DNA of 64,000 bases from Eledone cirrhosa (Eukaryota). The stretch covers positions 367,412,001-367,476,000 of the forward strand of contig OZ024741.1 in the NCBI GenBank assembly GCA_964016885.1. The letters run 5' to 3'. Of this stretch, positions 2,212 to 59,610 are shown piece after piece. Made by a program: the position numbers and the translations under genes. Numbering within the stretch: position 1 is the stretch's first letter; each line of letters starts with the position of its first letter. Below the pieces are notes generated by a model. The model did no database searches, was not told the DNA's origin, and worked only from the letters and a program-made list of their open reading frames with translations.

Positions 2212-2287
<76 letters not shown>

Positions 2288-2337
2288 AAATAAAATAACA
2301 GGAGGCTGGACTGGTGTAAATCCTTGAAAGGTTTATT

Positions 2338-2395
2338 ATAATATGATCATTTCAATGACCGGGTTCCATATGAATCCAGTGATATCATCAGGTAT
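2338..2395 (-). ncRNA. Hammerhead ribozyme motif (type B)
   Basis: Minus: ATAC-CTGATGA-TATCACTGGATTCATATGGAACCCGGTCATT-GAAA-TGATCA-TA. Confidence 0.75.
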
Positions 2396-4426
2396 TGGAA
2401 TATAACAAAGGAATATGTAAAAAACTATGGGTCCGAAAAATCAGAGACAGAGACAAAATATGGAACCCGGTCATTGAAATGATCATAGTATAATAAACCT
2501 TTCAAGGATTTACACCAGTCTAGCCTCCTGTTATTTTATTTTATTTATAATTAACTCCGTTTTCGCACCACTAACTACACAAACGTAGATGGGTGAACTG
2601 TACTGCGTTGAGTACTCTTCACAATATTACACCAGGATTGACCATACGGAATGACCAGTTCTATCCAGTGGTGAACCAACAAACCTAAAGAAATAATGCT
2701 CCAATAATGTTGGACACTTCAAAATGTAATATTGAACAGCGGCACTGACTTCAGTGTACAGCTATTGCCAGCATGGGATTAACTGATCTACTTACCATTC
2801 GGATTTTAGCTGCTCTGTGCTTTATCTACCGCCACCTGATACTACTTCCTTGTCGGGTTGATTCCGATTCCGACAAAACTCTACGTATTATACTAAAACA
2901 TGTATTGTATTGACTGAATTCTCTACTCTATATCTCAGGACTTTTTGTGACTCACACTGACTTCGGAGACCCGAACTTTACACTAGGTACAACCTGTTAC
3001 CATTCCATCTCCTCCATCCTCTATATCTATATGTACAATCTGTATTATCTTACTACAACTTGATCTATATTGTATTTCCCCTACACTGTGATCCCTCCGA
3101 TACGTTCTTATATACTTCCGTCTTTCTACATCCCTAGTTATTTACCTTTATTAATTTTTTTATTATTTCATTAATGTATATATTTTTTTTTATTATTTCA
3201 TTAATGTATATATATTTTTTTTAAATATGTTATTAATGTATTTTTATCAATGTATTCTATCTTTATATTTGTATTTTATCTTTGTATCCTGCTTTTATTC
3301 TTTTTTTGTAACTTTTCTTACTCAGGTCATTATGCACCTTTATAGCCCCTACCCACCTAAGAACCACACTACTTATAATCCGGACTAACTGGGACTTTAA
3401 AATAATTTTGGTCTATTTGCACTTTTCATTGGGTTGCTACCTTCGACTTGTGTGGTGGCTTTTCCCGGCTGCGCGCTGGGCACTCGGAAAGTTCAGCCTT
3501 CCTTGAGTGCTTGGAAAAATAAATTTCTCCTCTTTCGGTAAACGAAATTACTCGGAGCGGAAGCTTGGCCCCGGTCCCACCGCGCCGCCTGTTTTGGCCG
3601 CCATATTATACTTATACCTATAAACTCCAGGTTTAGGCATAACTGTTAGCTGTATCATGCCTCTACTGGCACGTAAATAAACCCTCATGTGTGATTTAGT
3701 AATATTCGTTTGGTATAGACGATGGCCTGTCGAAATTGTGGAGTACCCGCTGGCGCTCCCGGGGCCTAAGGTAGCTACGTTCCTAGAGTACTCGGAAAAA
3801 TTAATTTCCATTTCTTTCGCTGGACGATACCACTCGAGACTGGCTGACTCATGGTGGGGGGTGCTGGCTGGGACTCGCAATCGAAATCTTTACTCTACAT
3901 CCCATCCTAATATCTCATCGAGATAATTTTTTTCATATAAGACTCTCTCCGTAAGTTCATTAAATAAATCTCGCTACCTTAACCTTTAATTTTCTAATAA
4001 CTTATTTTTCGATTTATCATTTTGTAATTTAATATTTTTAATTTAATTTAATTTCATCCTATAACTCGCAACATAAGTTTAACGTTCCAATCTTCGGTTC
4101 ACACATTAGACCATACAGACACCCATTATAGATTCTTTGGAGTACATTTTTCGCCGCATTTTCTAGCATGAATGTAGTGTGACCGTTACGCTGACTTCTT
4201 TCTCCCTTTCTTTCTTTCTTTCTTCTCCTTTTTCTTTGACGGAGAAGTTGTAGTGCATTATAAGCCTTCGCCCCCTCACCAGATGTTCATTAGTAGATTC
4301 AGTTGCCACCACTTTGAGGGCAACTGGCCGAGATAGAGGCAGCTAGTTGGTCTGTCGTCCTCTTTGTCTCTGTCTCTGATTTTTCGGACCCATGGTTTTT
4401 TTTACATATTCCTTTGTTATATTCCA

Positions 4427-4484
4427 ATACCTGATGATATCACCGGATTCATATGGAACCCGGTCATTGAAATAATCATAGTAT
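4427..4484 (+). ncRNA. Hammerhead ribozyme motif (type B)
   Basis: ATAC-CTGATGA-TATCACCGGATTCATATGGAACCCGGTCATT-GAAA-TAATCA-TA-GTAT. Confidence 0.75.
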
Positions 4485-4565
4485 AATAAACCTTTCAAGG
4501 ATTTACACCAGTCCAACCTCCTGTTATTTTATTTTATTTATAATTAACTCCGTATTCGCACCACC

Positions 4566-4765
4566 NNNNNNNNNNNNNNNNNNNNNNNNNNNNNNNNNNN
4601 NNNNNNNNNNNNNNNNNNNNNNNNNNNNNNNNNNNNNNNNNNNNNNNNNNNNNNNNNNNNNNNNNNNNNNNNNNNNNNNNNNNNNNNNNNNNNNNNNNNN
4701 NNNNNNNNNNNNNNNNNNNNNNNNNNNNNNNNNNNNNNNNNNNNNNNNNNNNNNNNNNNNNNNNN
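4566..4765. other. Assembly gap
   Basis: Run of 200 N. Confidence 0.99.
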
Positions 4766-5255: not shown

Positions 5256-5286
<31 letters not shown>

Positions 5287-5408
5287 GAGGTGAGTTTTAT
5301 TGTAGTACAATAAAGCAATGCAGATATCGGATAAGAAGCACTCTACAGTTTGTAGGACTGGAGTATACATAATATAAGATCAAAAGATGGTTAAAGGAGT
5401 TCCATGTA

Positions 5409-5475
5409 TTTTATTATGCGCATTTCAAAAACAAACATCATCATGCAATAATATTTGTGTTTTCATCAGATAAAA
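5409..5475 (-). ncRNA. Hammerhead ribozyme motif (type D)
   Basis: Minus: TTTTAT-CTGATGA-AAACACAAAT...ATGTTTGTTTTT-GAAA-TGCGCA-TA-ATAAAA. Confidence 0.85.
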
Positions 5476-7076
5476 CAGGAGAACATGATATGAAGGCTAA
5501 AAAACACTTGTGGATAGTGCAGTTTTAAATCAACATATGAAAAGTGGTTTTAGATTGATGTGTGATATTGGGAAAAATATTTTATTTAGAGGGGGGGGGT
5601 GGAAAGGATGAAAAAGGGGAGGAGATGAGAGGGAGAGATGGGTGATAGAGAGAAAGAGATAGTTTTTATAACTGAGAGAAGATATATTGTTTTACATAGA
5701 GAGGTTGAAAACCGTTGGAAGATAATGTATAAATTAAAAGAATTTGAAAATTAACGAAGGGAAGATATGTATGAGGAAAAAATGTTTTATTTAGGGAGGG
5801 GGTGGTGGAAAGGATGAAAAAAAGGGGGAGGAGATGAGAGTGAAGGTGGAGAGGGAGAGATGGGTGATAGAGAGAAAGAGATAGTTTTTATAACTGAGAA
5901 AAGATATATTGTTTTACATAGAGAGGTTGAGAACCGTTGGAAGATAATGTATAAATTAAAAGAATTTGAAAATTAACGAAGGGAAAAAAAAATATTTGCG
6001 AGGAAAGAGAGGGAGTTTATGTATGAAGATAGAGAGAAAAAAATAATAATTGTGGATGAATATTCTAACGTCAAAAAGGTGTATGTTGATAAGTATTGTG
6101 GCAATTTCAAAATTAACGAAGAGAAAAAAATTATTAAGGTTTGTGTGTAGAAGGATTTGAGAAAATATAATGTGAAGTTAAAGTTTGTATATTGAAGGAA
6201 TTGATAATATGTGCGAAGAACGAGTTAATATGTATTAAGAATGAGTTTGTTGATGGGGAGAAAAAAATAATAAATTAAGGATGAAATTGAGATTAAAAAG
6301 TTTTATGATAGAGAGAAAAAATAATAATAATTGCGGATGAATATTCTAACGTCAAAAAAACAAATGTATATGTTATGAAGGATTTTACAAGGTGAAGATA
6401 GAAAGAGGGTAATGAGTAAACAAGTATTATAGAGTGTATAATGCCCTTTGAAGTAAGGTAGGAAGATGGGTATATTTTAAAGAGGTGTATGTATATGTGC
6501 CTTTGAGAAAAGATTCTAAATTAATAAAGAATTGAATATTAACTGTATACTTTGTGAAAAGTCCTCAAAATAGGTGAAGGAATTGGTGCTAGTTATAACT
6601 TTTTGGCTCCACTTCCACCTCTTTTAAAGCTCGTCTCTATAATCACCATTCATCTTTCAAATACAAACTTAAAAGAACCAACACGGCTCTCTCAGAACTC
6701 ATATGGTCCTTGAAAGACAAAAACATTAAATATACCATCTTTTGGAAGAAGGTTTCTTCTGCATCCTCATACTTGAACAGCTCTCTATCTAAAATCTGTA
6801 ATCTCTGCCTAAATGAAAAATTTACCATTATCTCTAATCTAGATTCTATAATAAATAGACGTACAGATTTGTTTTCTATCTGCCTGCATAAATTCCATAG
6901 GACTTTTCACAAAGTATACAGTTAATATTCAATTCTTTTTCATCCTTTCCACCCCCCCCCCTCTAAATAAAATATTTTTCCCAATATCACACATCAATCT
7001 AAAACCACTTTTCATATGTTGATTTAAAACTGCACTATCCACAAGTGTTTTTTAGCCTTCATATCATGTTCTCCTG

Positions 7077-7143
7077 TTTTATCTGATGAAAACACAAATA
7101 TTATTGCATGATGATGTTTGTTTTTGAAATGCGCATAATAAAA
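7077..7143 (+). ncRNA. Hammerhead ribozyme motif (type D)
   Basis: TTTTAT-CTGATGA-stem II-GAAA-TGCGCA-TA-ATAAAA; 6-bp stem I, palindromic stem III. Confidence 0.85.
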
Positions 7144-7179
7144 TACATGGAACTCCTTTAACCATCTTTCTTTTGATCT

Positions 7180-7290
<111 letters not shown>

Positions 7291-15749: not shown

Positions 15750-17697
15750 ATGGCTGAGCCACGCCTCCCAGTGATATGTCTGCTGTCGTGCGACAACGAC
15801 GTACAAGTTGAGAGGAGCGCTACAGCGAAATTAACACAAATTGATAACACAAACACCACCAAGGCACCAATGATAACAACACTGAGAACTCTAATTTTGA
15901 AAAAAATGACAGTAACAGCGACAACGAAAATACAGATAACGAAAAAAAAAAAAATGACAAATGCAACAACAATATCAACACCACCAACATGAAAACAAAC
16001 AGCGACAACACCAACAGCAACAATACCAACTGCACCGAGAACAACGGTGGCAACAAAGACAAAAATGATAACAGCGACAGTGATAACAACAACACCAACA
16101 AGAACAACGACAACGACAACAACACCCCCAACGAAAACAAGTAGAACACTTTCGCTGCGGCAGCAGCAAAAAAGAGGCCATGCTTCAACATGGACCTCTC
16201 AAACAAAGATGAAAAGTTGGCCCAGGCATGGAAGCTCATCAAGCAAGAGCAAACCTGGGCCAACTTAACTGTCCCGGTAGAAGCTATTGAGGCAGTGGAG
16301 CGCAGAACGGTGCATTATAGATGCATCTCAGCACAAACCAAAAGGGCAGCTTTAATCCCACAAGCAGATGTCGAAGTCGCACTGAGGTGCATCAGAGAAG
16401 ACACCGAATACATAGCGAGGGCAGACAGTACGGCACCATTTCGGTGCTGTTCAAGTCAGAAGCCCTCGCTATGAAACACGCTATGACTCCTTTCGAAACC
16501 AGCAAGGTCATAATGTACCCCTCCCACATGGAAAAAAGAACGGCCCGTCTCCGCATTCCCAGAATCCCACCAGGACTTGACATGTGGTGGCTTCTGGGAT
16601 GTGTGATTGTGGAGGGGACGGATACCGTCCCGATAGAAGTGACCAGAACGGCCAGAGAGGACTGGTCCGGGGTTGACCTGGAGGTCCTTCTCCAGATCAG
16701 GCCAGAGAATGTGAAGACAATCCCGGACCACATCCGCCTTCAGAATGGGACGGTCATTCATATTATGACCGAATGTAAAAAGCCGCATTGTTTTGTTTGC
16801 GGGGAAAAAACCCATTTGCGAGCCTTCTGCCCTCAACTGCTGAAAGATGCAAGGGGTCGAAAGGCTCCACTGCTGCCGACGCCGGGGCGAGGACGACAAC
16901 CAACACCAGCACCGGCAAAACCACCAACAACAATACCAATAGAAAGACCACCACCAACATTGACCACCCAGGGGGGGAAACGAGGAAAGCTGTCAAATCC
17001 CCCCCCCCCAATATACACACCAATAAAACCATAAGCACACACACAGACACACTTACAGACACAGACCCCTCATCTACCAGTAGTGAAGATGAGGAAAAAC
17101 CAAAATCCCCCAAAATACAAAAAAGGAAACACAAAAAGAAAAAAAAAATCAAGAAAGCACAAAATCACACACAATAAAAAACGCAGACACCACCCACGCA
17201 AACATCTCTCCAATAACACCAACATCAACATCACCATCACCAGAATCCCCCAAACGCAAACAACCTAAACAGGCGCAAGAACAAATATACACACAAACAT
17301 CGCACTCACAACAAACTCAGACACAACCGAAACAACACTACCAAAACCATCACCACCACAGCCACGCAAACAAATAAAATCACACCAACAATACATACAA
17401 AACTTCGTGCTCGTCAGGAGGGCCAACAAGGAACTGATGGCCCTCGTAGTACGAAGTGAAAATATACAAAAAGATGGGGAAATTTTTAAATCGAGCACAT
17501 TTCGCGTGCCGGAAGATTTGTTTCTGGTGCGAATGTCGCTCGATTTATACAAAGAAATACGAGACAGCTTTCCTCGGGACGTGGGAACCCCGAACGTAAA
17601 ATCCACTTCAAGACTTTTAAAGGGGTTCCCAAAAGAAACCCCACCAACTATAGAGGTCGAACCACCCGACCTTCACAAGAGCCCGGAAGGTAAGTAA
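15750..17697 (+). pseudogene. LINE ORF1 (nucleic-acid-binding protein with CCHC knuckle), frameshifted
   Basis: CFVCGEKTHLRAFC in ORF 16321-17034; N/D-rich N-terminus and P/T/K-rich C-terminus split across frames. Confidence 0.75.
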
Positions 17698-17729
17698 ACC
17701 TTTCCTCTCTCTCTTTTTAACCTGCCAAC

Positions 17730-20700
17730 ATGGCCGTATTAAGAGTAGGAAGTTTAAATGTTCGAGGCCTGGGATCGTCCTGGAAGCAGGGTCACCTGCT
17801 CAACAACCTCAGGTCTCTAGAAATGGATGTAATTGCCGTCAGCGAGACCAGGTTTTCCGACACGCGCGTACTAGCCCCCATTTTCGACGACTATCAGATC
17901 TTTGCATCTGTTAGCCGGCCGGAAATGGGAGGCGGGGTGGCAGTGCTATTTAGGAAAGGCCTGGATCTCGAGGTAAGGTCGATCTTCCGGGACCCGGACG
18001 GGAAGTTGGTGGTCCTGGACGTGAACAATAACGAAGGTGGTGCCTTTAGACTGGTGGCCGTCTATGCTCCTACTGGGGCAGCACGGCCGGACTTCTTTAG
18101 ACGCATGGAAGCCTTTCTGGGTACGTCTCTCCCTTTACTGTTGGCGGGGGACTGGAACGGCATCTTAGACGCACGCCTATTCAGATCACAAGTTTGTGAC
18201 CTGTGTGGTCGACCTAGATAAGACGCGTAGGTTAGGACCTGGTTACTGGAAGCTAAACATGTCATTTCCGGCACGTAAGGCTTACAAGGACCAGGTCAAC
18301 AATTTAGTTAAGAAAAAGTTGACAGGGGGAGTCGTCAACAATAGATGGTGGGGGGCTGTCAAAAGAGAGATTAGAGTAATGTCGATAGAGTTTAGCAAAG
18401 AAGTAGCGTTAGAGAAAAATAGAAAGGAGGGGGAGTTGGTAGATAAGTTAGACGAGGCTATTGGTAGTGGCATTGCAACTGACGTGCTAGCGGCGAGAAT
18501 GGCATTAGACCATTTCTTCAATGCGAAACACGAAGGTTGCATTGTCAGAGCTAAGGCGCGTGTTCTGAGAAACGAAGGAACCAAAGCTGTTCGATGGGCC
18601 CTCGTGGCAGAGGCGCAGCGTGGTAATAAAACCACGATTCGGTCTTTAACGGACCGAGACGGACACGAGCTGAGCGATTCCAAGCGGATGTGTGAGGCCT
18701 TTCGCCAACATTTTGCTCGGTTGTTCGGGGGGAAGTGGAGGGTCAGAGATGGTGGTGGACTTCAGTCCCTACCTCGATGGCTTGCCGCAACTCTCGACGG
18801 CTGACGCTGGGCGCTGCGAAAGGCCAATTACTTCAGCCGAGATTCAGGATGCCCTTGTCGGCTGCATGAAGCGCAAGTCACCCGGTTTGGATGGTCTGCT
18901 CTACGAGCTTTACGTAACTATGCCAGACTTGTTCTCCAATCTCCTCGAAGCCCTCTACTGCAACTGGCAGCAAAACGGGAGTATTCCCAGTTCAGTGAGC
19001 CGGGGAGTAGTGGCGCTGATAAGGAAAGACGAGAACAAGAGGGACACATTAGACAATTTCAGGCCCATAACTCTGCTCAACACAGAGTATAAGATTTTGG
19101 CCAGGGTGTTAGCGAAGAGGTTGGCGCTTGTCGTCGGGGATTTGGTTGGGGAGGCGCAAACTTGCGCAATCCCAACCAGGTCCATACACGACAACCTCCA
19201 CCTAATACATCATAGAGAGGGTAGGATGTAAACCTGACTTCGGTAGGGCTCTGATCAATTTAGATCAATCGAAAGCATTCGATTGGGTCGACCATCGGTA
19301 CCTGGAGGCTGTCCTCAAGGCGGCTGGCTTCGGCCCCGTCTCCAGAAGCTGGATCGCTGCAATGCACAGCGGCACCTGCTCGGTGGTCAAAATTAATGGC
19401 CACCCCTCGGAACCGTTTCAGGTGTCCCGATCGGTCCGTCAAGGGTGCCCTCTCTCCTCCCTTCTGTACGTATTGACTCTCGAGCCTTTAGTGCAGAAGC
19501 TGGAGCTGTTGCAGGGCATCCCGCTCGAACCGGGACGCGGAAAGGCTGTGTCGGCTTATGCCGATGACATCACCGTGATAGTGTCGGACACCTCAGAAAT
19601 CGAGGTGGTCGGCAACTTATTGGAGGAATATGAAAGGTTGACGGGAGCAAAACTTAACCCGGAAAAGTCGGTGGGCTTGCAACTCGGCACCTAGAGAGGC
19701 AAGTCCATGCCGTCCAACAGCGTCGTTAGGCGCTGGACGGACGGACCGGTAAAGTTGCTCGGGGTTTGGTTCGGGCCAGACCTCCAGGTGGATAAGAATT
19801 GGGACGAGGTGATGGGCAGGGTAGCCAGTCTCACCCAGAAATGGGCTGGTATGAAGCTATCACTGAAAGGTCGGGCGGAGGTGGCGAACGCGTACATCAC
19901 GTCCGTCATCTACTACCGTCTGACCGTCGTCCCTTGCTCCCGTTCGCGCCATCTTGGAGCGGCTACTCTTTAAATTCTTGTGGAGGGGTCAGGTTCCTCT
20001 GGTGAGGCGGTCTATCTGCTGCCAGCACCCTCTATGTGGAGCACTGGGCATGCCGTGGCTAATGATGCGCAGACACGCGCTGAGGCTGCGGCATCTCCAG
20101 ATATTCTGCCTAAACGGTGAACAGTTGTGGTCGCCGTTTGTCAGACGGGCCTTTCAGCAGCTCGTTTCTTTGACTGAGCTGCAGTCCTGGGTCAAGAAGA
20201 GACTGGGTGACTGGCATCTGGAATGTTGCCAGGCACTCACTGTCCTCTACCAGGCGGGCAATGCGGTCAGTGGAACTTCCACTCTCGAGTTCTATAGAGG
20301 ATTAGTGGTGGGCAAGTGCGACGACGCACTCGGAGAGGCTCTGGGAGTCGACGAAGTCGAACTAACCAGTCTGTACCGGAGGACTTTCGAGCCGGGGACG
20401 ATGGATAATTTCCAAAAATCCCTCGCTTGGCAGTGCTACCGGGGGGCACTGCCGGTTCGAGATAAACTCTACAGGCACGGAAGTGCTGTCAGACGGACCT
20501 GCCCGAGATGCGCGCAGAGCGACGAAACCGTTCTGCACGCACTCGTCCAGTGTCCGTGCATTACTGACTTGTGGAGTTATGTTGAACAGCTGTTGTCGCG
20601 TCTAGAACGGATCCGGCTATCGGCCGAGTCCATAGTGAAGATCACCTTCTTTTGGCCAGGAAGAGCAGGAAAGTTTCCTGTCTGGTGGCAGTAGCAAAAG

Positions 20701-20906
20701 AGGTTGTATGGTGGACGGGGTTGAAAGGACTGAAAACAGACACTTTTCTCTTCGACCAATCCCTCATCAACTTTTTCAAGTTTCACTTGGAAAGGAAGGT
20801 GAGGGTGGAGAGAGAAGTGCTGCCCCCCAGTACATTTGCTGAAAGGTGGGTGAATGTGGCGAGAATGGCCCGTGTGAGTGGGCCTACTCTGGTCATGCGG
20901 CTGTAG
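17730..20906 (+). pseudogene. LINE ORF2 (APE endonuclease + reverse transcriptase), multiple frameshifts
   Basis: SLNVRGL, SET, VYAP, GDWN, GPGYWKLN, KSPGLDGL, NFRPITLLNTEYKI, VRQGCPLS, AYADDI, CPRCAQSDETVLHALVQC. Confidence 0.92.
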
Positions 20907-22460: not shown

Positions 22461-22792
22461 TAATAGTAATAAATGGAAAATATCACTATAGCATCATATT
22501 TATTTTATTATACGTATTTCAAGGATACCAAATTATGGTATGTTTTCATCAGATAAAATACAATGTTTGATGTATAAGATAGTGATATACCCAAAGTATA
22601 AACTTTCTACTCCAGCTTACAGTGGGCATGTAAGCTGAAGTTGAAAGTTTATACTTTGAGTATGTCACTATCTTATACATCAAACATTGTATTTATCTGA
22701 TAAAAGCATGCCATAATGTGGTATCCTTGAAATACGTATAATAAAATAAATATGATGCTATAGTGATATTTTCCATTTATTACTATTAATAA
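22458..22792. mobile_element. Palindromic hammerhead cassette (type F)
   Basis: Arms of ~160 nt around a 9-nt spacer near 22625. Minus 22503-22558: TTTTAT-CTGATGA-..-GAAA-TACGTA-TA-ATAAAA. Plus 22692-22745 has the mutated core CTGATAA. Confidence 0.8.
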
Positions 22793-30765: not shown

Positions 30766-31282
30766 TGCCGTTCGACATATAAAGTATATTGTCAGATATA
30801 TAACAGTCGCCAGACGGGATCAGAGACAATGATTTCTAGGACATGAGATCGCATCTCACACTATGCTGTCCCTGCAGCTAAATAGATTAAGTACCAGGCA
30901 TATATATGGCTTTTTACTTCAGAATATAAAGGCGCGTGGCTTATTGGTGAGAGTGTTCGGCTCCCGACTGTACGGTTATATGTTCTAATCCCAGCGCCAC
31001 CCTGTATCTTTGAACAAGATACACTCAATTAGTAACAATGAGGTCTACCTATAATTTAAAAGACCAGCTTGTCAAAATATATTTCATGCTGAATCTTTCT
31101 AAGAATTACGTTAAGAGTACACTTATCTATGGATCGCTCAGTCACTTGTTCCGTCGATCGAATCCACTGGAATACTTTTGGTCGGAACCGATGGAAATGG
31201 AAGTCGAACAACATCAACATAAACAACAATTTGTGCGGTAGATATAATTTGTCGGCCAGTTTAACGCCATCTACTGGTCAGT

Positions 31283-33839: not shown

Positions 33840-35247
33840 ATACATACATACATACATACATACATACATACATACATACATACATACATACATACACACA
33901 TTCATACAATCATTGATATATTTATATATATTTAGAAGATTTTAAACAATAACTTTCCAAGTTCTACCGTCGTTTCAAACACTTTCACCGTGTAATCTGG
34001 AGGAAAAGTTTGTTGTCGTTGTTGTTGCTCTTATTATTGTAGTTGTTGTTCTTGTTGCTGTTCTTGTGGTTGTTGTTGTTGTTGTCGTTGTTGTTATTGT
34101 GGTTGTTGTCGTTATTGTTTGGCGTGAGGTTAGCCTTGGTATTTTTATGGCTTGTTCAAGCAAGGGAGGGCTGTGCATATGACTTTTTTCAGACTCTCCG
34201 AAACTGATAGGAGGAAAGTGGGGAAGTTATCCTCAAACCAGAGACAGTCTTGGCCGGAATGCTTTAAAAAAAGTGGACTCTCCTAAAGATATCCATTGAC
34301 CAGTAGATGGCGTTACACTAGTCAACGAATTATTTCTACCACACATGTACTTCCATCGGTCCCAACAAAACGTGTACCAGTTGTTCGTACAATGGAACCG
34401 CCTGTTCTTGAAATTAACGTGCAAATGGCTGACACATGTACCCTTAACGTAGTTCTCAGGAAGACTCAGTGTGACCAGGTCCTATGAGCGGGGTTCCAGC
34501 GGTACTTTGTTCCATGGTCCAAGAGTTAAGAAGATCCCACAGCAACCATGCAACATTCATTTTGAGAAAAATCTTTGCCTGCTTCGGGCCCCAAAGAGGT
34601 CTTATACCGCCTTGTAAATTTTTTTCTTGGAGGCCCTGAGTGTGACACAATGTGTGGAAATGTTGGTTCTTAGAATTACGGGTACAACGCATTTCGTTGC
34701 ACATCTGCAGCATCGTCAGTGGTGCTATTGTTTCCTCCCGTTGCATTGTATTTTCTACGCCATCTTTATTTAGTCTGTTTATATATTTATTTATTTATTT
34801 TTTTGTCTTCTTTGCGCATGCGTTTGCGTGTGTGTATAGTGTTTTGTTTGATGTGTGTTCGTGGTTGGGTGACTGTGTATTGGTTAATGTATTCTATCTT
34901 TACTAGTGTGTGTTTATATGTGTTTGTTGTTATTGTGCTTGTGTATGTATTTATTTATTTATCTATTTATTTATTTATTTATATTTCTCTTAGGTCAGTG
35001 TTGTTTGTTTGGGTGTTGTTGTTATTCCATTCATTTTTTTTCTGTTTAGCCATGGCCTTCTAAGTTCTATTTCACTGGCCTCTCTGATTTGCCTATCTGC
35101 TGGGTCATTTCTATGTTTAGATATTATTCTAATTTCTATGTTGTCTATGTTACCGTCGTGTTGTTGTCTGGCATGTTCGTATACGAATATATATATATAT
35201 ATAAATATATATATAAGATCAAAAGATGGTTAAAAGAGTTCCATGTA

Positions 35248-35314
35248 TTTTATTATGCGCATTTCAAAAACAAATATCATCATGAGATGACATTTGCGTT
35301 TTCGTCAGATAAAA
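35248..35314 (-). ncRNA. Hammerhead ribozyme motif (type D variant) in a solo pLTR 35214-35420
   Basis: Minus: TTTTAT-CTGACGA-AAACGCAAATGTCAT..ATGATATTTGTTTTT-GAAA-TGCGCA-TA-ATAAAA. Confidence 0.82.
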
Positions 35315-35523
35315 TAGGGAGACATGATATGAAGGTTAAAAAACACTTGTGAATAGTGCAGTTTTAAATCAACATATGAAAAGTAATTTAAGATTGATGT
35401 GTGATATTGGGAAAAAAAATGAGGGGTCCTACTCGTTCCTATTACCCACTCTACTACCCTAAGTATTGAGTACTTTGGTGCGTTATGGTCCACCTGGTTC
35501 CTTACCACATTTCCTTCGTTATA

Positions 35524-35568
<45 letters not shown>

Positions 35569-35621
35569 CAGGAAAGAAGAGTGACACGGTTTGCTATACA
35601 AAAAAGGTTTTTAATCTCATT

Positions 35622-35727
35622 GCTGACAATTGTTTCTCTGAACTGGTAGGTCTAGAGATCGCTATCCGCTTGTTTTCGCGTTACTCGATCGCCAATACAA
35701 AATTATAACCAGTCAGTTCATCGGAGC
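35622..35727 (-). ncRNA. Hammerhead-like motif with CCGANGA core and long stem II (family I)
   Basis: Minus: GCT-CCGATGA-ACTGACTGG...CCAGTTCAGA-GAAA-CAATTG-TC-AGC; second copy at 46145-46250. Confidence 0.6.
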
Positions 35728-37029
35728 TTGCGAGAATGAAGAGAATATACAGGCATGAAAGGAATATACAGGCTACTATATGTAGTAGTAATGGCATTCA
35801 GTTAGAATAATAACAACAATATCAACAATGCTAGCAATAAAATATTTGAAATAATCACAATATCAATCTAGGTGGGGAGTATAGTATATCTATGATTTTA
35901 GCGTGTAAAACTAGCTGACATGAAGCAGATGTATAAAATTGACATGTAAGGACTGTCGTAGGCTGTATTATATCAAGTGTAAAGAAAAGCTGGTGTTTTT
36001 AAACAATGTAGTTCAGGTGGCCGTAATAGTCGGTTTTTATCTGACCGATGAAGTATTTATCACTGTAGTAGAATTTGTGTGGTCTATATTAGATGAGAGT
36101 TCAGTCTATCTTTTCCATCCTCAATAACATACATGTATAGGACAACACTGACAAAGCTAAATAAGATGGGTATATTTTAAAGAGGTGTATGTATATGTGC
36201 CTTTGAGAAAAGATTCTAAATTGATAAAGAATTGAATATTAACTGTATACTCTGTGAAAAGTCCTATGGAATTTATGCAGGCAGATAGAAAACAAATCTG
36301 TACGTCTATTTATTATAGAATCTAGGTTAGAGATAATGGTAAATTTTTCATTTAGGCAGAGATTACAGATTTTAGATAGAGAGCTGTTCAAGTATGAGGA
36401 TGCAGAAGAAACCTTCTTCCAAAAGATGGTATATTTAATGTTTTTGTCTTTCAAGGACCATATGAGTTCTGAGAGAGCCGTGTTGGTTCTTTTAAGTTTG
36501 TATTTGAAAGATGAATGATGATTGTAGAGACGAGCTTTAAAAGAGGTGGAAGTGGAGCCAAAATAGGTGAAGGAATTGGTGCTAGTTATAACTTTACATT
36601 CATAAATTAAGTTTTTATCGAGACAATGGTTGTTGAGAGGACATTTATTTTTAATGCGGCAGTTGCAATTAGAGAGATTATTAATGAGTGACCTAGTGTT
36701 ATCTATAGAAGGAATTGGATTGGAGAAGTTGTTTGCGATAGGAATAATAGGAATAATAGTTTCTTGATTTAGAGTTGGATTATGAACATTTAGCGAAGTT
36801 GTGTTTGACGTTGTATTTGGGTTTACAGAAGTTAGCCTAGAGTTTACAATGACGTCGGGAGTACTATTACTGTTATTATGAAATTCAATGTTGGAAGGAA
36901 GAGAATTAGTATTTAGTATTTTATTGTTGTGTTTAGAGATGATGTTGGAAATATTGGAGGATGTAGAATAAGAAAATTTGATGGTGTGTTTGTTAAATAT
37001 TTTACTATAGATATCAAATTGAATAAATT

Positions 37030-38796
37030 TTGGTTTGTTTTTATTATCCAATTTGTTATATCCCACAGGTTAGTTCTAATTGCTCTTCTTTGAACCTAAA
37101 TTTATGGTTTGGTACTTCTGAAGTGATTGGCTGGTTCAACAAATTGGATAATAAAAACAAACTAAAATTTATTCAATTTGATATTGCCAGCTACTATTCC
37201 TCCATTTCGCCTTCACTTCTCAATAATGCTCTATCTTTCGCACTTAAATATTCTGACATCACCACAGATGAACTTCACATCATCCTCACCGCACGTAAAA
37301 CCATCCTAGAGTTCAACAACGAATATTGGACCAGAGCCGATACCTCTAACAACTTCGACATCACAATGGGAGCATCCGATTCATCCCAATTGACTGATTT
37401 AATTGGTATCTTCATTTTGAACTCTTTGAGTCGGAAAATTCCTCAACTTCGCGGTGGAATTTATCGTGACGATGGACTCTTTACTATCCTAAATTGCAAT
37501 ATAGTTAACCTTAATATTATTAAGAACAATATACGTAATCTCTTTAACCAACATAACCTAAAAATTGAATTTGATAATAGTATCAAACTAGCTAATTTCT
37601 TGGATGTATCTCTTAATCTTGACACTGGCCTATATTACCCTTACCATAAAAACAATGAGAACCTAAATTATGTTAACTTTAAATCTAACCATCCTACCAA
37701 TATCAAGAATGCTATAGTTAGTAATATTGGAAAAAGAATATCTAACATATCTTCTAATAAAAACATCTTTGATGCTAACGCCAATTACTATAATAACGCA
37801 CTTTCTAAAGCCGGCTATCCAGATAAAATCAAATATAGTAAAGAAACAAATTCTAGAAAAACTTACAGTAGAATAATTAATCATGATCATTCCAATAATT
37901 TTAATAAAAGACCTAGATACAAAAACATAATCTGGTATAATGCTCCTTTCTCCATCTCTATTAATAACAATATTCCTAAATTATTTTTTAGTGCCTTAAA
38001 TAAATGCTTCCCTTCCTCACATATCTATAGTAAAATATTTAACAAACACACCATCAAATTTTCTTATTCTACATCCTCCAATATTTCCAACATCATCTCT
38101 AAACACAACAATAAAATACTAAATACTAATTCTCTTCCTTCCAACATTGAATTTCATAATAACAGTAATAGTACTCCCGACGTCATTGTAAACTCTAGGC
38201 TAACTTCTGTAAACCCAAATACAACGTCAAACACAACTTCGCTAAATGTTCATAATCCAACTCTAAATCAAGAAACTATTATTCCTATTATTCCTATCGC
38301 AAACAACTTCTCCAATCCAATTCCTTCTATAGATAACACTAGGTCACTCATTAATAATCTCTCTAATTGCAACTGCCGCATTAAAAATAAATGTCCTCTC
38401 AACAACCATTGTCTCGATAAAAACTTAATTTATGAATGTAAAGTTATAACTAGCACCAATTCCTTCACCTATTTTGGCTCCACTTCCACCTCTTTTAAAG
38501 CTCGTCTCTACAATCATCATTCATCTTTCAAATACAAACTTAAAAGAACCAACACGGCTCTCTCAGAACTCATATGGCCCTTGAAAGACAAAAACATTAA
38601 ATATACCATCTTTTGGAAGAAGGTTTCTTCTGCATCCTCATACTTGAACAGCTCTCTATCTAAAATCTGTAATCTCTGCCTAAATGAAAAATTTACCATT
38701 ATCTCTAACCTAGATTCTATAATAAATAGACGTACAGATTTGTTTTCTATCTGCCTGCATAAATTCCATAGGACTTTTCACAAAGTATACAGTTAA
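37030..38796 (+). CDS. Penelope-type reverse transcriptase-GIY-YIG endonuclease (N-terminally truncated, otherwise open)
   Basis: FIQFDIASYYSSI, ITMGASDSSQLTDL, IYRDDGL, NFLDV, SNHP, CNCRIKNKCPLNNHC, LIYECKV..YFGST..FKARLYNH. Confidence 0.9.
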   Translation: MVCFYYPICYIPQVSSNCSSLNLNLWFGTSEVIGWFNKLDNKNKLKFIQFDIASYYSSISPSLLNNALSFALKYSDITTDELHIILTARKTILEFNNEYWTRADTSNNFDITMGASDSSQLTDLIGIFILNSLSRKIPQLRGGIYRDDGLFTILNCNIVNLNIIKNNIRNLFNQHNLKIEFDNSIKLANFLDVSLNLDTGLYYPYHKNNENLNYVNFKSNHPTNIKNAIVSNIGKRISNISSNKNIFDANANYYNNALSKAGYPDKIKYSKETNSRKTYSRIINHDHSNNFNKRPRYKNIIWYNAPFSISINNNIPKLFFSALNKCFPSSHIYSKIFNKHTIKFSYSTSSNISNIISKHNNKILNTNSLPSNIEFHNNSNSTPDVIVNSRLTSVNPNTTSNTTSLNVHNPTLNQETIIPIIPIANNFSNPIPSIDNTRSLINNLSNCNCRIKNKCPLNNHCLDKNLIYECKVITSTNSFTYFGSTSTSFKARLYNHHSSFKYKLKRTNTALSELIWPLKDKNIKYTIFWKKVSSASSYLNSSLSKICNLCLNEKFTIISNLDSIINRRTDLFSICLHKFHRTFHKVYS

Positions 38797-39835
38797 TATT
38801 CAATTCTTTATCAATTTAGAATCTTTTCTCAAAGGCACATATACATACACCTCTTTAAAATATACCCATCTTCCTACCTTACTTCAAAGGGCATTATACA
38901 TTCTATAATACTTGTTTACTCATTACCCTCTTTCTATCTTCACCTTGTAAAATCCTTCATAACATATACATTTGTTTTTTTGACGTTAGAATATTCATCC
39001 GCAATTATTATTATTTTTTCTCTCTATCATAAAACTTTTTAATCTCAATTTCATCCTTAATTTATTATTATTTTTTTTTTTTTTTCTCCCCATCAACGAA
39101 CTCATTCTTAATACATATTAACTCTTTATTCGCACATATCAATTCCTTCAATATACAAACTTTAACTTCACATTATTTTTCTCAAATCCTTCTACACACA
39201 AACCTTAATAATTTTTTCTCTTCGTTAATTTTGAAATTACCACAATACTTATCAACATACCCTTTTTTTTACGTTAGAATATTCATCCACAATTATTATT
39301 TTTTCTCTCTATCTTCATACATAAATTCCCTTCGTTAATTTTCAAATTCTTTTAATTTATACATTATCTTCCAACGGTTCTCAACCTCTCTATGTAAAAC
39401 AATATATCTTTTCTCAGTTATAAAAACTATCTCTTTCTCTCTATCACCCATCTCTCCCTCTCCACCTTCACTCTCATCTCCTCCCCCTTTTTTTCATCCT
39501 TTCCACCCACCCCCCTCCCTAAATAAAACATTTTTTCCTCATACATATCTTCCCTTCGTTAATTTTCAAATTCTTTTAATTTATACATTATCTTCCAACG
39601 GTTTTCAACCTCTCTATGTAAAACAATATATCTTCTCTCAGTTATAAAAACTATCTCTTTCTCTCTATCACCCATCTCTCCCTCTCATCTCCTCCCCTTT
39701 TTCATCCTCCCCCCCCCCTCTCTAAATAAAATATTTTTCCCAATATCACACATCAATCTAAAACCACTTTTCATATGTTGATTTAAAACTGCACTATCCA
39801 CAAGTGTTTTTTAGCCTTCATATCATGTTCTCCTG

Positions 39836-39902
39836 TTTTATCTGATGAAAACACAAATATTATTGCATGATGATGTTTGTTTTTGAAATGCGCATAATAA
39901 AA
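39836..39902 (+). ncRNA. Hammerhead ribozyme motif (type D) at the Penelope 3' end
   Basis: Same sequence as 7077-7143. Confidence 0.87.
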
Positions 39903-39959
39903 TACATGGAACTCCTTTAACCATCTTTTGATCTTATATATTATATATATATATATTCA

Positions 39960-42610
<2,651 letters not shown>

Positions 42611-55813: not shown

Positions 55814-58800
55814 TATATATACATACACATACATCCAGATACACACATACATACACACACACACACACACACGCACACACGCACACAATACATACATCCA
55901 CATGCACACACATACACACACACACACATATACACATACATACACCCACACACAGAGAAATGGCCTTCAAATATATATATATATATATACATACAGACAC
56001 ATATATTTTTTCCATAATATAAGAAGTTGGGGCAGTGAAATTAAAATACAAGTCATTCTGATCACATTGAGTTCTTCATGTAGATTGGGCCCCGCAACCG
56101 ACAGTGGTGAATTCTGTGTGCGCATATATATATAGATATATGTGTGTGCACGTGCAGGGTTTAACATGGATGTGTTGGTCACACAAAGGCATGGTCTGTC
56201 AATGAATAAACCTGATTCTACAGAATTGGTCTCTGGTCTTTAATAGTAGTGATTCCGTGCGTATGTGTGTTTATATTTTATGACAATTCTATTGGGGTGA
56301 TAACCCTTTTAGTTTTGGTTTAAATTTGTTAAGGAATAGATTTTCTTTGTTTATTCTTTGTTGCTGTGTGAACGAATCTGAGCACCTGTAGAAGGGGAAG
56401 ATTTTAAAGTTGGGTAGTGTCATTCCTGCGCAGTTCGCAATATGGCTGCTCAAGGGGATTTTTCTTGTGTTAGCGTCCCGGATTTGTTGGCGGTGGATGG
56501 TCATTCTTTTGCGTAATGAGGTGCCCGTCTGTCCTATGTAGTTGTGTTTGCACCCACCGCAAGTTATTGCGTAAATCAAGTTCTCCGAGTTGCAGGTGAA
56601 ATTGTTTTTTACTGTAAATGTTTGGCCATCTTTGAATGTAAATGTTTGTCCTTCAGTGAGGTAGAGGCACGTTCCACAGTTTGTTCTACCACATTTGGTA
56701 ACTGTAGGGTTGAGGATTGGTTTGGGTATATTTGGTCCAGTGAGAATGCGTTTAAGTGATTTGGGTTGTCTTTTACTTTTAAGGATCTTGTGTGTTTCAA
56801 GAATAGACTTCATTTTTACATCTTTAAGTAGGATGGGGAGGTTTTTGTGTAGGTGATCAAACATTTCGGTATTTCTGGGGTTGAAAGTGGATACATATGG
56901 CAGGGTGTTGAGTGTGGTTTTCTGATTTGGATTGTTAAGTTGATGGGGATTTAGGTGTTTCGCCCTGTCTATTCCATTGTTGATTATTTCAAGTGGAAAG
57001 GCTCTTAAGATAAGGGTGTCTTTTAGTTCCTTTAGTCTTTGCTCCCGTTTAGGTGGATCTGATACTATGGTACATATACGTTTGGCCAAATTGTAAGGAA
57101 TGTTAAGTTTTGGTGACTTGATGTGAAAAAGAGGTATTGCTTGGAATCTGTGGGTTTATAGAATATATCTGTATCTAATTTCCCGTCTATTACAGAGATG
57201 AGAATATCCAAGAAGGCTAATTCCTTAGGATTGGATTCCATTGTGAATTGTATGTTATTATCTATGTTGTTTATCATGTTTTTAAACGTAGTAAGTGAGT
57301 TCATGTCTTCTTGCCATAGGATAAAGCAGTCGTCTAGATATCTTTTCCAATTGGCTTTGAGGTGTGTGTGGAAAGAGTCTCCAAATAAGAGAAGGGACTG
57401 ACTGTATATTTGTTGTTCATGGAATCCCATGACTAGGTTGGCATATGTGGGTGCTACTTTCGTGCCCATTGCCGTACCTGATACTTGTCTGTATGTTGAA
57501 CCATTGAATGTGAAGTAGTTATTTTGTAGGATAAAGCGGAGTCCGTCAGTGATAAAATCTGTGTTGATGCGTGTCGGTATTTCTGATGGGTGTGTGTTAA
57601 GCCAGTATTGGACTGCTGTTATTCCATAGTTGTGAGGTATGTTTGTGTAGAGGTTTATTACGTCAAAGGAGACAAGAATTGTATTTGCACTTACTGTTTT
57701 AGGGAGGTGTTTCAGCATGTCAAGGTCATCTCGTATGTAGCTCTGTATATGTTGTAGAAAGGGTTTCAGTAGGATGTCCAGAAAGTTGCTAAGTCTGTGG
57801 GTTTCACATGTAGGGCCTGCTATAATTGGCCTGAGTTTTAGGTCTTCTGGTGGTGTTAGTTCAATGTAATTGTTGGTTGAGGTGTCACATGCATCGTTTA
57901 TGGGTTTACATTTGTGAAGTTTCGGTAACCCGTAAAAAGAGCTTGTATTGCATTTGAAGTGGCTTATATAGTTAAACTCTTTTGTGGTTAAGCTGTTGCG
58001 GTATTTATTCAGTAAGGTCAAAAGGTTCCCCATTGTTTTGGTGTGTTTGTAGTTTTCTGTTTTTTCATAGTATGTGTTGTTTTCTAAAATGTTAAGTGCG
58101 AGGGTCCTATAGTAGTCCGTATTCATAATGACAACAGTACTGCCTTTATCGGCTTCTTTGATAGTTATCTCAGGGTTGTTTCTAAGTGTGAATAATTCTT
58201 CCCATTCGTGTGTAGATAGGTTTGATTTCGTGTGTTTATTTGTAATTTTTTCATAGGGAAAGTTGGTGATGTGTTCGCAGTACGTGTCCAGTGCTTTATT
58301 TCTTCCCTTTTGTGGGCAGAAATTGCTTTTATTTCTAACCAGTGATTCGTCTTCAGTGTTGGTGTCGTTGTGGAAGAATTCCGTTAGTCGCAGCTTTCGG
58401 CAGTATTCCATGATGTCATCCTTCATTTCGGGGAAGTTTGGTTTACGTGGTGTAGGTGTAAATTTCAGGCCCTTACTTAAAATGTTGATTTGTGTGTTGG
58501 TTAGAGGTGTCTTTGAGAGGTTGATTATTTTTGGTTTCTCCTGAGGGGGGGGGGGGGGGGGCATCCAGTATCCTGGTATTTCAGGCTTTTCCCTAAAAAA
58601 GGAATGTAGTTTTGTGTGTGATTATATTTTGTTGGTCTGTTGCGTGTGGGTCTGTAGCTTGTTGTTTCATGAGGGTGAATGTGATGGTGGGGGTGGTATG
58701 TGTTGTGGTTGTTGATGAGCAAGGGTTCTGTTGTTGGTTCATGTGGTCTGGGTGCGTTATTTCTGTGGTACAGAGTGTTGAGGCTGGGGGGTTTTCTTTT

Positions 58801-59610
58801 GTTGGATTGAGGGTGATGTCTGGTGTGGTTGTGGGTAAGTTCTGTTGTGATTTCAAGTGGTCTGGGTGGATTTCTTCTGAGGAATGTGGTGTGTGTGTTG
58901 TGAGTTGGATCTATGTTATTTCGTCGTTGGTTTATGTAGGGGGCATTTCTACGGAAACCTGTGTTGTGGTGGTTGGGTGTGTTTCTTTTGGTGTAGTTGG
59001 CCGTATTTGGTTTGTGTTGGTGGGGGATGTGCCTGTGGTTAGTGTGTGTTGGGTTTGGTGGTGTAAATGTATCTGTTGTAGTTCTTGTTATGTTCAAATG
59101 CTTTATAAAGGGGTTACCTGTTTGGTGCGTCCTTTTAAAGTCTTCTTCATATTTGAGGAACCAGTTTTCGGATTTTTCCCACCGTTTAAGGGAAATAGTT
59201 TCTGCATTCTCGCAGTCCTGTTTCCACGATTTGATTAAATTTTGTAGGGTTGTTCCCTCGGCCTTTTTAGTGCATTCTTCCTCCATATTTTTATCAGTAT
59301 CCTTATACTCTTGCTCGTTTGAGGTGGCCCTTAATTTTAGGAGTTCTATTTCCATGTTTATCCTGTTGAGTGACATTTGTTCACGGAGTTTTCTTTCTGG
59401 TTCAGGTTCGTTTGTAATATGCTTTATTTGGAATTTACGTGGTAAAACTATCGGTGTTGAGTTAATCCATTTTTGGTAAATTCCAGCTTTGTTGAGGTTT
59501 TTATACCCTTCATTATTTCCTTACCTTATAAAATTATGTTTTTTCACAAAAAAGTATTCTGTCTCTTATATATTCCATGTGCCATTACCAACCTCAATTT
59601 TCTCTCTCTC
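55107..59610 (-). mobile_element. Near full-length Penelope-like element (Neptune/Naiad-like linker), with inverted terminal repeat
   Basis: 55140-55248 is the reverse complement of 59500-59610; degenerate hammerhead at 55249-55292 (TTGAAAA-GATGG..CCATC-GAAA-CCGG-TC); (TA)n at both ends. Confidence 0.92.
56289..59376 (-). pseudogene. Penelope RT-GIY-YIG polyprotein in three frames (58525-59376, 57065-58564, 56289-57089)
   Basis: INLS..LSKGLKFTPTP, KEADKGS, FYGLPKLHK, RPIIAG, SFDVINLYTNI, GTAMG, RYLDDCF, CGRTNCGTC, NLIYAITCGGCKHNYIGQT; breaks at the poly-G run near 58550 and at a deletion near 57100. Confidence 0.93.

Follow-up and report, generated by a model that had tools for sequence, protein, structure and literature searches.

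We describe a repeat of 2-2.6 kb that encodes no protein, carries Penelope-like ends and, judging from sequence comparison, is most probably mobilised by the proteins of Hydra-clade elements through a signal common to both. The helper would be a Hydra-clade reverse transcriptase-endonuclease that copies the family into (TA)n microsatellites, and the borrowed protein would recognise a small RNA stem just behind both fixed ends. The family would fall into a class already known, the non-autonomous Penelope-like elements (PLEs). A sequence-only reading of the window, that is, of the whole 64-kb stretch of DNA analysed here, had proposed a long non-autonomous, retrozyme-like family in which RNA elements and not a protein are conserved; our results support this, in that a ribozyme motif, two end signals and two rod modules are kept. 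The term retrozyme-like stands as a resemblance, but the unit is longer than those of the retrozymes in the literature consulted and tandem arrays are rare. For the selection of RNA and of the two internal starts by Penelope enzymes, no signal is defined in the part of PMC11167929 that maps the starts, and the proposed mobilisation of hammerhead repeats by Penelope elements has so far rested on co-occurrence and pseudo-LTR similarity. Here, the family shares nothing alignable with its probable helpers; the one thing they have in common is a short stem that follows either end at a constant spacing, and this stem provides a concrete element to mutate. With the family, the size of hammerhead parasites rises to 2-2.6 kb, which exceeds the lengths covered by the published screen, and a conserved, predicted structured module of no catalogued kind comes to light.

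The window holds two copies, element 1 of subfamily A (2280-4565) and element 2 of subfamily B (39954-42436). The length of 2.3-2.5 kb given to them by the sequence-only reading is correct for the insertions and not for the units (1,993 nt in element 1, ~2.6 kb in B), and the two belong to different subfamilies, each with many copies of 89-96% identity over the interior. Element 1 begins with an inverted left arm (2280-2457, minus strand) made of the final 178 nt of the unit, with a hammerhead core at 2391 (minus), which reaches end 1 and then passes into (TA)n/(CA)n. Next to it lie a 5'-truncated upstream repeat (2458-2487, plus), consisting of the hammerhead 3' half up to a predicted cut at 2487/2488; a complete, non-coding subfamily-A unit of 1,993 nt from predicted cut to predicted cut (2488-4480, plus); and a downstream repeat (4481-4565, plus), which passes end 1 (4542) and enters the tail before the right end of the element runs into an assembly gap (N, 4566-4765). 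The tail from end 1 to end 2, ~145 nt, is found at 2550-2695 (plus). Element 2 consists of an inverted arm (39954-40304, minus; hammerhead at 40206, minus; full tail), which stops at end 2 inside the (TA)n behind a Hydra element, and a 5'-truncated body (40302-42436, plus) with heads at 40755 and 41037, an intact hammerhead motif at 42323 and end 1 joined to (TA)n at ~42428. A hairpin 5' of the ribozyme is strong in element 2 (42210-42270, z -5.1) and degenerate in element 1 (4316-4362, plus; z -0.6). Element 2 also contains a SINE-like insert (41323-41503) and a second insert (41966-42150) that other B copies lack in their main alignment; the SINE-like insert has 85-96% copies at six further sites of the window.

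Several features read from these two elements were borne out. The hammerhead/end repeat is common to both (82-89% identical), as are the inverted 5' arms, with identities of 95.6% in element 1 (2280-2457 vs 4363-4542) and 93.9% in element 2 (40097-40304 vs 42225-42436). The conserved blocks that had been named, AACGTTCCAA (4081, 40676, and 41299), AAGACTCT..CTCGC.ACCTTAA (3939 and 41187) and CCGCCATAT (3598 and 40854), are confined within the window to the two elements. Such scattered blocks are thus real, but the interior is not otherwise as diverged as had been stated, since 3496-3836 and 40746-41087 align at 70%.

The host genome, of 3.0 Gb, is rich in (TA)n and PLEs, and the family is abundant in it. 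Interior queries from element 1 (801 nt) and element 2 (991 nt) each matched 40 of 40 scored candidates, at 91-100% identity for the former and 90-100% for the latter; the interiors are family sequence, and the test for unrelated flanking DNA in other copies came out against flank. Subfamily A has a unit of 1.9-2.0 kb (consensus 1,932 nt) and subfamily B one of ~2.6 kb (consensus 2,603 nt); the two consensuses are ~70% alike where alignable, with identities of 84% at the ribozyme, 72% over the first 590 nt and 68% over 640 nt in the middle. Variant ribozymes together with interior motifs led to subfamilies C (1,928-2,064 nt), D and E. The non-coding family comprises at least four subfamilies; three loci (L188, L180, and L167) represent further ones. 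A hammerhead pattern gave 4,570 exact genomic matches against 0 for the control, and the first 30 of these loci all extend upstream into family sequence. Most copies are short truncated arms, 5'-truncated and dispersed, among loci drawn from similarity and pattern searches and not as a random sample. Median divergence from the consensus is 3.4% in A (n=30), 3.0% in B (n=30), 3.1% in C1 (n=9) and 6.1% in C2 (n=16), ages that lean young because the copies dated are the best matches of their searches. Traces of a third interior module are retained in B-like copies, and locus L180 has two near-identical modules ~360 nt apart.

Copies stop at two exact sites, ~61 and ~207 nt past the predicted cut (~145 nt apart). 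Of 256 unique uncut end regions, 112 stop at end 1 and 96 at end 2; the remainder continue through (39), break off within the tail (5) or are shorter (4). After end 1, (TA)3 comes next in 109/112, and after end 2 in 93/96. Unique divergent two-armed insertions combine end 1 with end 2 in 45 of 48 cases (end 1 with end 1 in two, a partial tail in one), and the tail lies on one arm in 45/48. Element 2 fits the end 1/end 2 pairing, and element 1 has end 1 on the left while its right side enters the tail. Public contigs (four runs of one study, of undefined kind) cover the unit and break into (TA)n at 2689-2695. The family shows a partial tandem (pseudo-LTR), an inverted 5'-truncated arm and a tail at one end. 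In the PLE layout outlined in section 6 of PMC8557442 there is likewise an inverted arm and a tail often at one end; one of each end with the tail on one arm is the layout of the relevant parts of PMC8557442 and PMC11167929, but with a longer tail here. In the experiments of PMC11167929, AT-rich DNA is cut on both strands by a Penelope protein, which begins at two internal positions, one at either limit of the tail, and depends on RNA 3' of these positions.

Behind each end, mostly at a distance of 2-14 nt, comes a stem signal, RCTCC..TNGAGYRCTY. Over A, B, C2 and two Hydra families of the same genome (H1 and H2), the distance is commonly 6-8 nt within this range, where A and C2 share one anchor and site 1 of A is smeared by a variable T/A run. 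In all five the signal occurs twice: the version behind end 1 is ACTCC..GAGTRCTY and that behind end 2 GCTCC..GAGCRCTT, and the helices of the two sites, ACTC/GAGT and GCTC/GAGC respectively, differ by a compensatory A-U/G-C pair. In element 1, signal 1 (2554-2617, plus) reads ACTCC, a 49-nt insert and TTGAGTACTC, directly preceded by end 1 of other copies (~2549); signal 2 (2698-2719, plus), with the family form GCTCC-N7-TTGAGCACTT, is directly preceded by end 2 (~2689-2695) and has two bases swapped (2713-2714) relative to that form. Both H1 and A/B have TGCTCC-N7-TYGAGCRCTT directly behind end 2. A pattern derived from family signal 2 and written to exclude H1 gave 431 matches (control 0), and its first 30 loci comprised 23 of the family, 6 with a Hydra-type ORF of family H2 ~20 nt downstream and 1 short fragment. 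Because insertions end before the signal, the signal is left uncopied at the site it serves, which fits the required 3' RNA described in that part of PMC11167929.

From their sequence, coding Hydra-clade elements with the same signal are the likely helpers. H1, an 821-aa family with the CxCX5C linker reported in section 11 of PMC8557442, is present at 37027-39935 (plus) with a hammerhead at 39842 and the same kind of end signals, and qualifies as a candidate helper class, separate from element 2. Its copies in the window (35193-39935 and 5280-7185) show a fold-back structure and a 1-kb 3' region, and element 2 sits in the terminal (TA)n of an H1 copy. H1 is very young (150 scored matches 99-100% identical in protein over the 821-aa frame). 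H2, a second Hydra family 50-60% identical to H1, has a 4.03-kb unit (L279:1354-5388; G000:C1, ~52.41 Mb) with an AT-rich 1.6-kb 3' region, and its ATG follows signal 2 by ~20 nt. Divergence from the H2 consensus is 2.4-4.3% in 7/13 copies and 5.4-18.3% in 6/13; the former match the age of A, B and C1, and H1 is younger, which makes the age-matched H2 the best helper candidate. Hammerheads of the window that are similar to the H2 ribozyme lie at 22552, 52168 and 62347 (minus). The link between family and helper consists of a motif plus geometry, and alignable terminal homology to an autonomous family, a usual though not universal trait, is absent for the families compared: blast gave no similarity of the family to H1 (30 loci), to a Neptune-like family (30 loci) or to H2. 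We found no autonomous element with the family's own ribozyme among 30 + 20 hammerhead loci, in which direct joins of the ribozyme to an upstream ORF were likewise rejected. Nearby Hydra/Neptune ORFs in L122, L129, L136, L137 and L271 are separate neighbours by position or intervening (TA)n. The Neptune-like family of the window was also dismissed as helper, given its lack of similarity and of a matching ribozyme in the 12 of 30 loci scanned.

Under the proposed mechanism, the RNA would be transcribed as one unit plus the start of the next. The borrowed protein would nick both (TA)n strands and prime reverse transcription 2-14 nt upstream of a signal, which would be signal 1 for one side and signal 2 for the other; such dual priming would yield divergent arms, one of them with the tail. 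Copying would then run through the ribozyme site into the preceding unit, on a circular unit or on uncut read-through RNA.

Each unit has one type I hammerhead motif, its core and stems I-III recognised by inspection. In element 1 it spans 4427-4484 (plus), with CTGATGA at 4431-4437, GAAA at 4469-4472 and a predicted cut at 4480/4481. By eye, its parts are ATAC, CTGATGA, a long stem II opening with U.U, GAAA and a palindromic TGATCA, with the predicted cut site after ATA, in front of GTAT; element 1 has a private change at 4474 in the palindromic stem III. Rfam gave no hammerhead (0 at gathering score) and the minimum-energy fold did not recover one; for both reasons ribozyme activity is a prediction. 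Stem III, a 6-nt palindrome, would need a dimer, and dimer-dependent cleavage is described for such short stem III motifs in the relevant part of PMC6155905. Adjoining element 1 on the left is a separate ~290-nt repeat (1881-2175, minus) with its own hammerhead-like core at 2039, where U.U is also found at the stem II base, and with 80-94% copies in at least 15 other loci.

Where the 5' boundary is visible (193 arms), ends do not pile up at the ribozyme cut: 2 lie within 15 nt of the upstream cut site and 16 beyond it, 21/193 stop 16-210 nt short of it, and a further 5 are longer than one unit and reach the edge of their locus. Since the boundaries do not stop at the upstream cut, the template is not usually a linear unit released by cleavage. 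They are compatible with a circle as well as with uncut read-through RNA, and we consider the two about equally probable. Four arrays contain two full units. In two of them, L296 and L297, the tandem units are 0/1,903 and 5/2,077 bases apart, though 2.5-3% from the consensus, which would fit a recent local duplication or an assembly duplication; in the other two the units differ by 103 and 159 mismatches, less than their summed distance to the consensus. By their sequence, the latter pair look like primary multimers and the near-identical pair like later duplications.

These data bear on a serious competitor, to which we give a little under an even chance, namely that the family is a very large true non-LTR retrozyme, whose ribozyme excises 2-2.6-kb units and whose circle is copied round and round. 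The absence of a pile-up at the upstream cut, the 16/193 arms that pass it and the two multimers that look primary by unit divergence all agree with this, as do the retrozyme circles shown in coral, mussel and axolotl in the pertinent part of PMC7229834. Yet these boundaries are explained equally by uncut read-through RNA, and the assays reported in the pertinent part of PMC11167929 had unprocessed RNA as their main substrate. Moreover, most copies are short truncated arms, the two other arrays (0 and 5 mismatches) are later duplication or assembly, and the ribozyme, of predicted activity, has a palindromic stem III that would need a dimer and a stem II that opens with U.U. A rod fold of the whole unit is a criterion for viroid-like or HDV-like circular RNA. 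Such a rod was rejected, the circular fold of A being 54% paired with 30 hairpin loops; a 200-nt z-profile of the unit, from 12 shuffles, is noisy.

Besides the ribozyme and the signals, a 50-nt head motif occurs twice per unit, 280-300 nt apart, each time within a predicted rod. In element 1, module M1 (3450-3606, plus), a predicted long imperfect RNA rod, carries its head, a conserved branched tip, at 3505-3553 (plus), with the start-signal 10-mer at 3503-3512; module M2 (3714-3899, plus), a second predicted rod with weaker support than M1, carries its head at 3786-3835 (plus), with the 10-mer at 3784-3793. Head patterns gave 1,403 matches against 0 in the control and 1,701 against 1. For each of ten module consensuses (z -1.4 to -4.2) the predicted fold is a long, imperfect rod that ends in one and the same three-way head, the sense strand folds better by z in 9/10, and both rods persist in the predicted fold of the whole circular unit. 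Over these ten the heads are 86% identical vs 62% for the arms. The alignment fold of M1 (6 sequences) has 52 pairs, 91% of cells paired and z -5.4, with 7 pairs in which both partners have changed, vs 0-3 after sliding; that of M2 (8 sequences) has 47 pairs, 90% and z -1.8, with 6 double changes vs 1-4. Covariation of the rods is moderate; the heads show none beyond shuffles (32, 26, and 240 of 500), and the head alone is not unusually stable (z -0.75 and +0.64). In an arm-swap test the own arm was best in 1/10, with a mean residual of -5.5 kcal and a permutation p of 0.0007 that is computed over related, hence non-independent, modules. Scars of RNA editing were sought in the rods, where A-to-G changes are not in excess (27/3089 vs 34/4883 for T>C, p 0.43). 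The two near-identical modules of locus L180 hint at an origin of the interior modules by tandem duplication.

The feature that may be novel is the start-signal 10-mer at the base of both heads. TNGAGYRCTY has exactly four sense-strand sites and no antisense site in the A, B and C2 consensuses, namely the two end signals and the bases of the two heads (interior expectation 0.03), although the match between signal and head was noticed after the fact. In the head, the partner strand YACTC lies downstream of the 10-mer and is predicted to form the same five-pair helix with its 3' flank; the AU-rich priming stretch of the signal is replaced by two hairpins, and the fifth signal base (RCTCC) is G. 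Priming at the heads was rejected, as 0/30 head loci end at one. The head model matched none of the Hydra and Neptune loci searched, and Rfam gave 0 hits on the modules at gathering score; the inverted repeat matched nothing but hairpin-type miRNA models, and hits elsewhere had E>4. A tRNA origin was likewise discarded, with no tRNA call in either element; elsewhere in the window, at 30929-31002, ARAGORN calls a tRNA-Gly(CCC) gene.

On this structural model, the heads could be binding-only docks for the borrowed protein, a possibility to which we would assign rather less than half the weight. The interior rods would display the signal helix and its 3' flank at their tips, with hairpins in place of the priming stretch, and the tips would bind the protein without priming, thus helping the non-coding RNA to compete for it. 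It is also possible, at a probability clearly below even, that the modules are not docks but act as DNA (an internal GC-rich promoter or an endonuclease recognition site) or as host-facing RNA (export, stability), the shared 10-mer being left over from a duplicated end signal that gave rise to them. The head sequence is kept with almost no compensatory change, like a DNA binding site; the modules are the sole GC/CpG-rich islands (53% GC; 15 and 11 CpG); no promoter was identified, although the element requires one; and the Drosophila Penelope endonuclease needed tail DNA, as recounted in a section of PMC11167929. However, the rod arms diverge to 62% while pairing is kept (M1 z -5.4), G-U pairs are commoner on the sense strand (79 vs 43 in ten folds), and the 10-mer is sense-only, with its complement placed to form the same helix. 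The combined proposal, that the family is a multi-kb circular RNA parasite and that the helper start signal was duplicated and permuted into binding-only decoys on rod tips, seems unlikely. If this decoy reading were true, the enzyme would be captured from its own mRNA, and no recognition element of a Penelope reverse transcriptase would have been defined before the stem RCTCC..TNGAGYRCTY.

Coding capacity is lacking by every measure applied. The longest stop-free frames are 104 aa in the A consensus, 110 aa in B and 161 and 127 aa in others, and their strands and places differ between consensuses; of 26 indels between the 5' parts of the A, B and C2 consensuses, six are multiples of three. 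Searches by tblastn with eight retroelement proteins of the same genome (Hydra, Neptune-like, GIY-YIG, and two LINE RTs) gave nothing below E 0.1, and none of 43 frames of at least 45 aa (element 1 and an intact B unit) matched Pfam at E 0.05. As Pfam overlooks the genuine Hydra protein too, tblastn is the weightier evidence. The earlier statement that no RT or endonuclease remnant exists thus agrees with tblastn, Pfam and frame lengths alike, and the consensus, by the same results and the indels, is non-coding and does not resolve into a decayed Penelope ORF. The autonomous-Hydra ORF (RT, CxCX5C linker, and C-terminal GIY-YIG) is present in H1 and H2 and absent from the family. Two possible frames were set aside: one of 40-46 codons after the tail, common to A and C, is shifted in B, and a peptide reading of the head (VLGKINF.., with third-position variation) meets in-frame stops five codons upstream, has no ATG and is further contradicted by a 1-nt deletion in A-M1. 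It is accordingly very improbable, and largely refuted already, that the family is a decayed or internally deleted autonomous Penelope with an interior of eroded coding or UTR sequence: its ends are fully Penelope-like, H2 has a 1.6-kb non-coding 3' region and A and C have that short frame 3' of the tail in common, but the frame shift in B, the 6/26 frame-keeping indels, the lack of any protein match or DNA similarity to Hydra UTRs and the separate amplification of at least four subfamilies while ORF-less stand against it.

Among known systems, animal non-LTR retrozymes, in the sections available of PMC7229834 and of a preprint (10.64898/2026.07.22.740005), resemble the family in their non-coding unit, single type I hammerhead motif, head-to-tail joins and proposed mobilisation by PLEs. 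Their units are ~300 bp (PMC7229834) or 51-972 bp (the preprint, whose tandem search, as its available text states, was limited to period 1,000) vs 1.9-2.6 kb here; unlike retrozyme arrays, the family consists mostly of dispersed 5'-truncated two-armed insertions with conserved interior modules. The Hydra clade, as characterised in part of PMC8557442, shares the hammerhead, (TA)n targets, partial tandems, inverted arm and tail at one end, and the two Hydra families of the same genome have the same signal behind both ends. In contrast to Hydra elements, the family is without an ORF and has a different ribozyme sequence, and its interior modules are absent from the Hydra loci searched. The tail is ~145 nt in the family, ~90 nt in H1/H2 and 30-40 bp in the general PLE description of PMC8557442. 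Non-autonomous Chlamys elements such as MRC1 have, in the passages devoted to them in PMC8557442 and PMC9940879, pseudo-LTRs and head-to-tail insertions as the family does; yet they belong to green algae and to a clade without canonical hammerheads, and their 3' end is generally similar to that of autonomous families, whereas the family is linked to its helper by a short signal only. TOC1 was set aside as a Penelope relative, being a DIRS element according to the corresponding passage of PMC9940879. Poseidon PAc of the green anole, in the sections of PMC11167929 that treat it, shares with the family two internal starts bounding the tail, AT-rich targets, the cutting of both strands and the required RNA 3' of the starts; it is autonomous and of a different clade, and those sections define no shared start-signal sequence. 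A literature search, repeat databases and supplements aside, retrieved no multi-kb hammerhead parasite of Hydra elements and no such signal or modules.

The window also contains a Neptune-like Penelope element (56289-59520, minus), with RT and GIY-YIG domains by Pfam. Its family shows no canonical hammerhead in the 12 loci scanned and is young and abundant, with 135 scored matches at 96-100%. The stretch at 16100-20900 we take, from its translations, to be a broken LINE with a zinc-knuckle-like ORF1 and endonuclease and RT frames.
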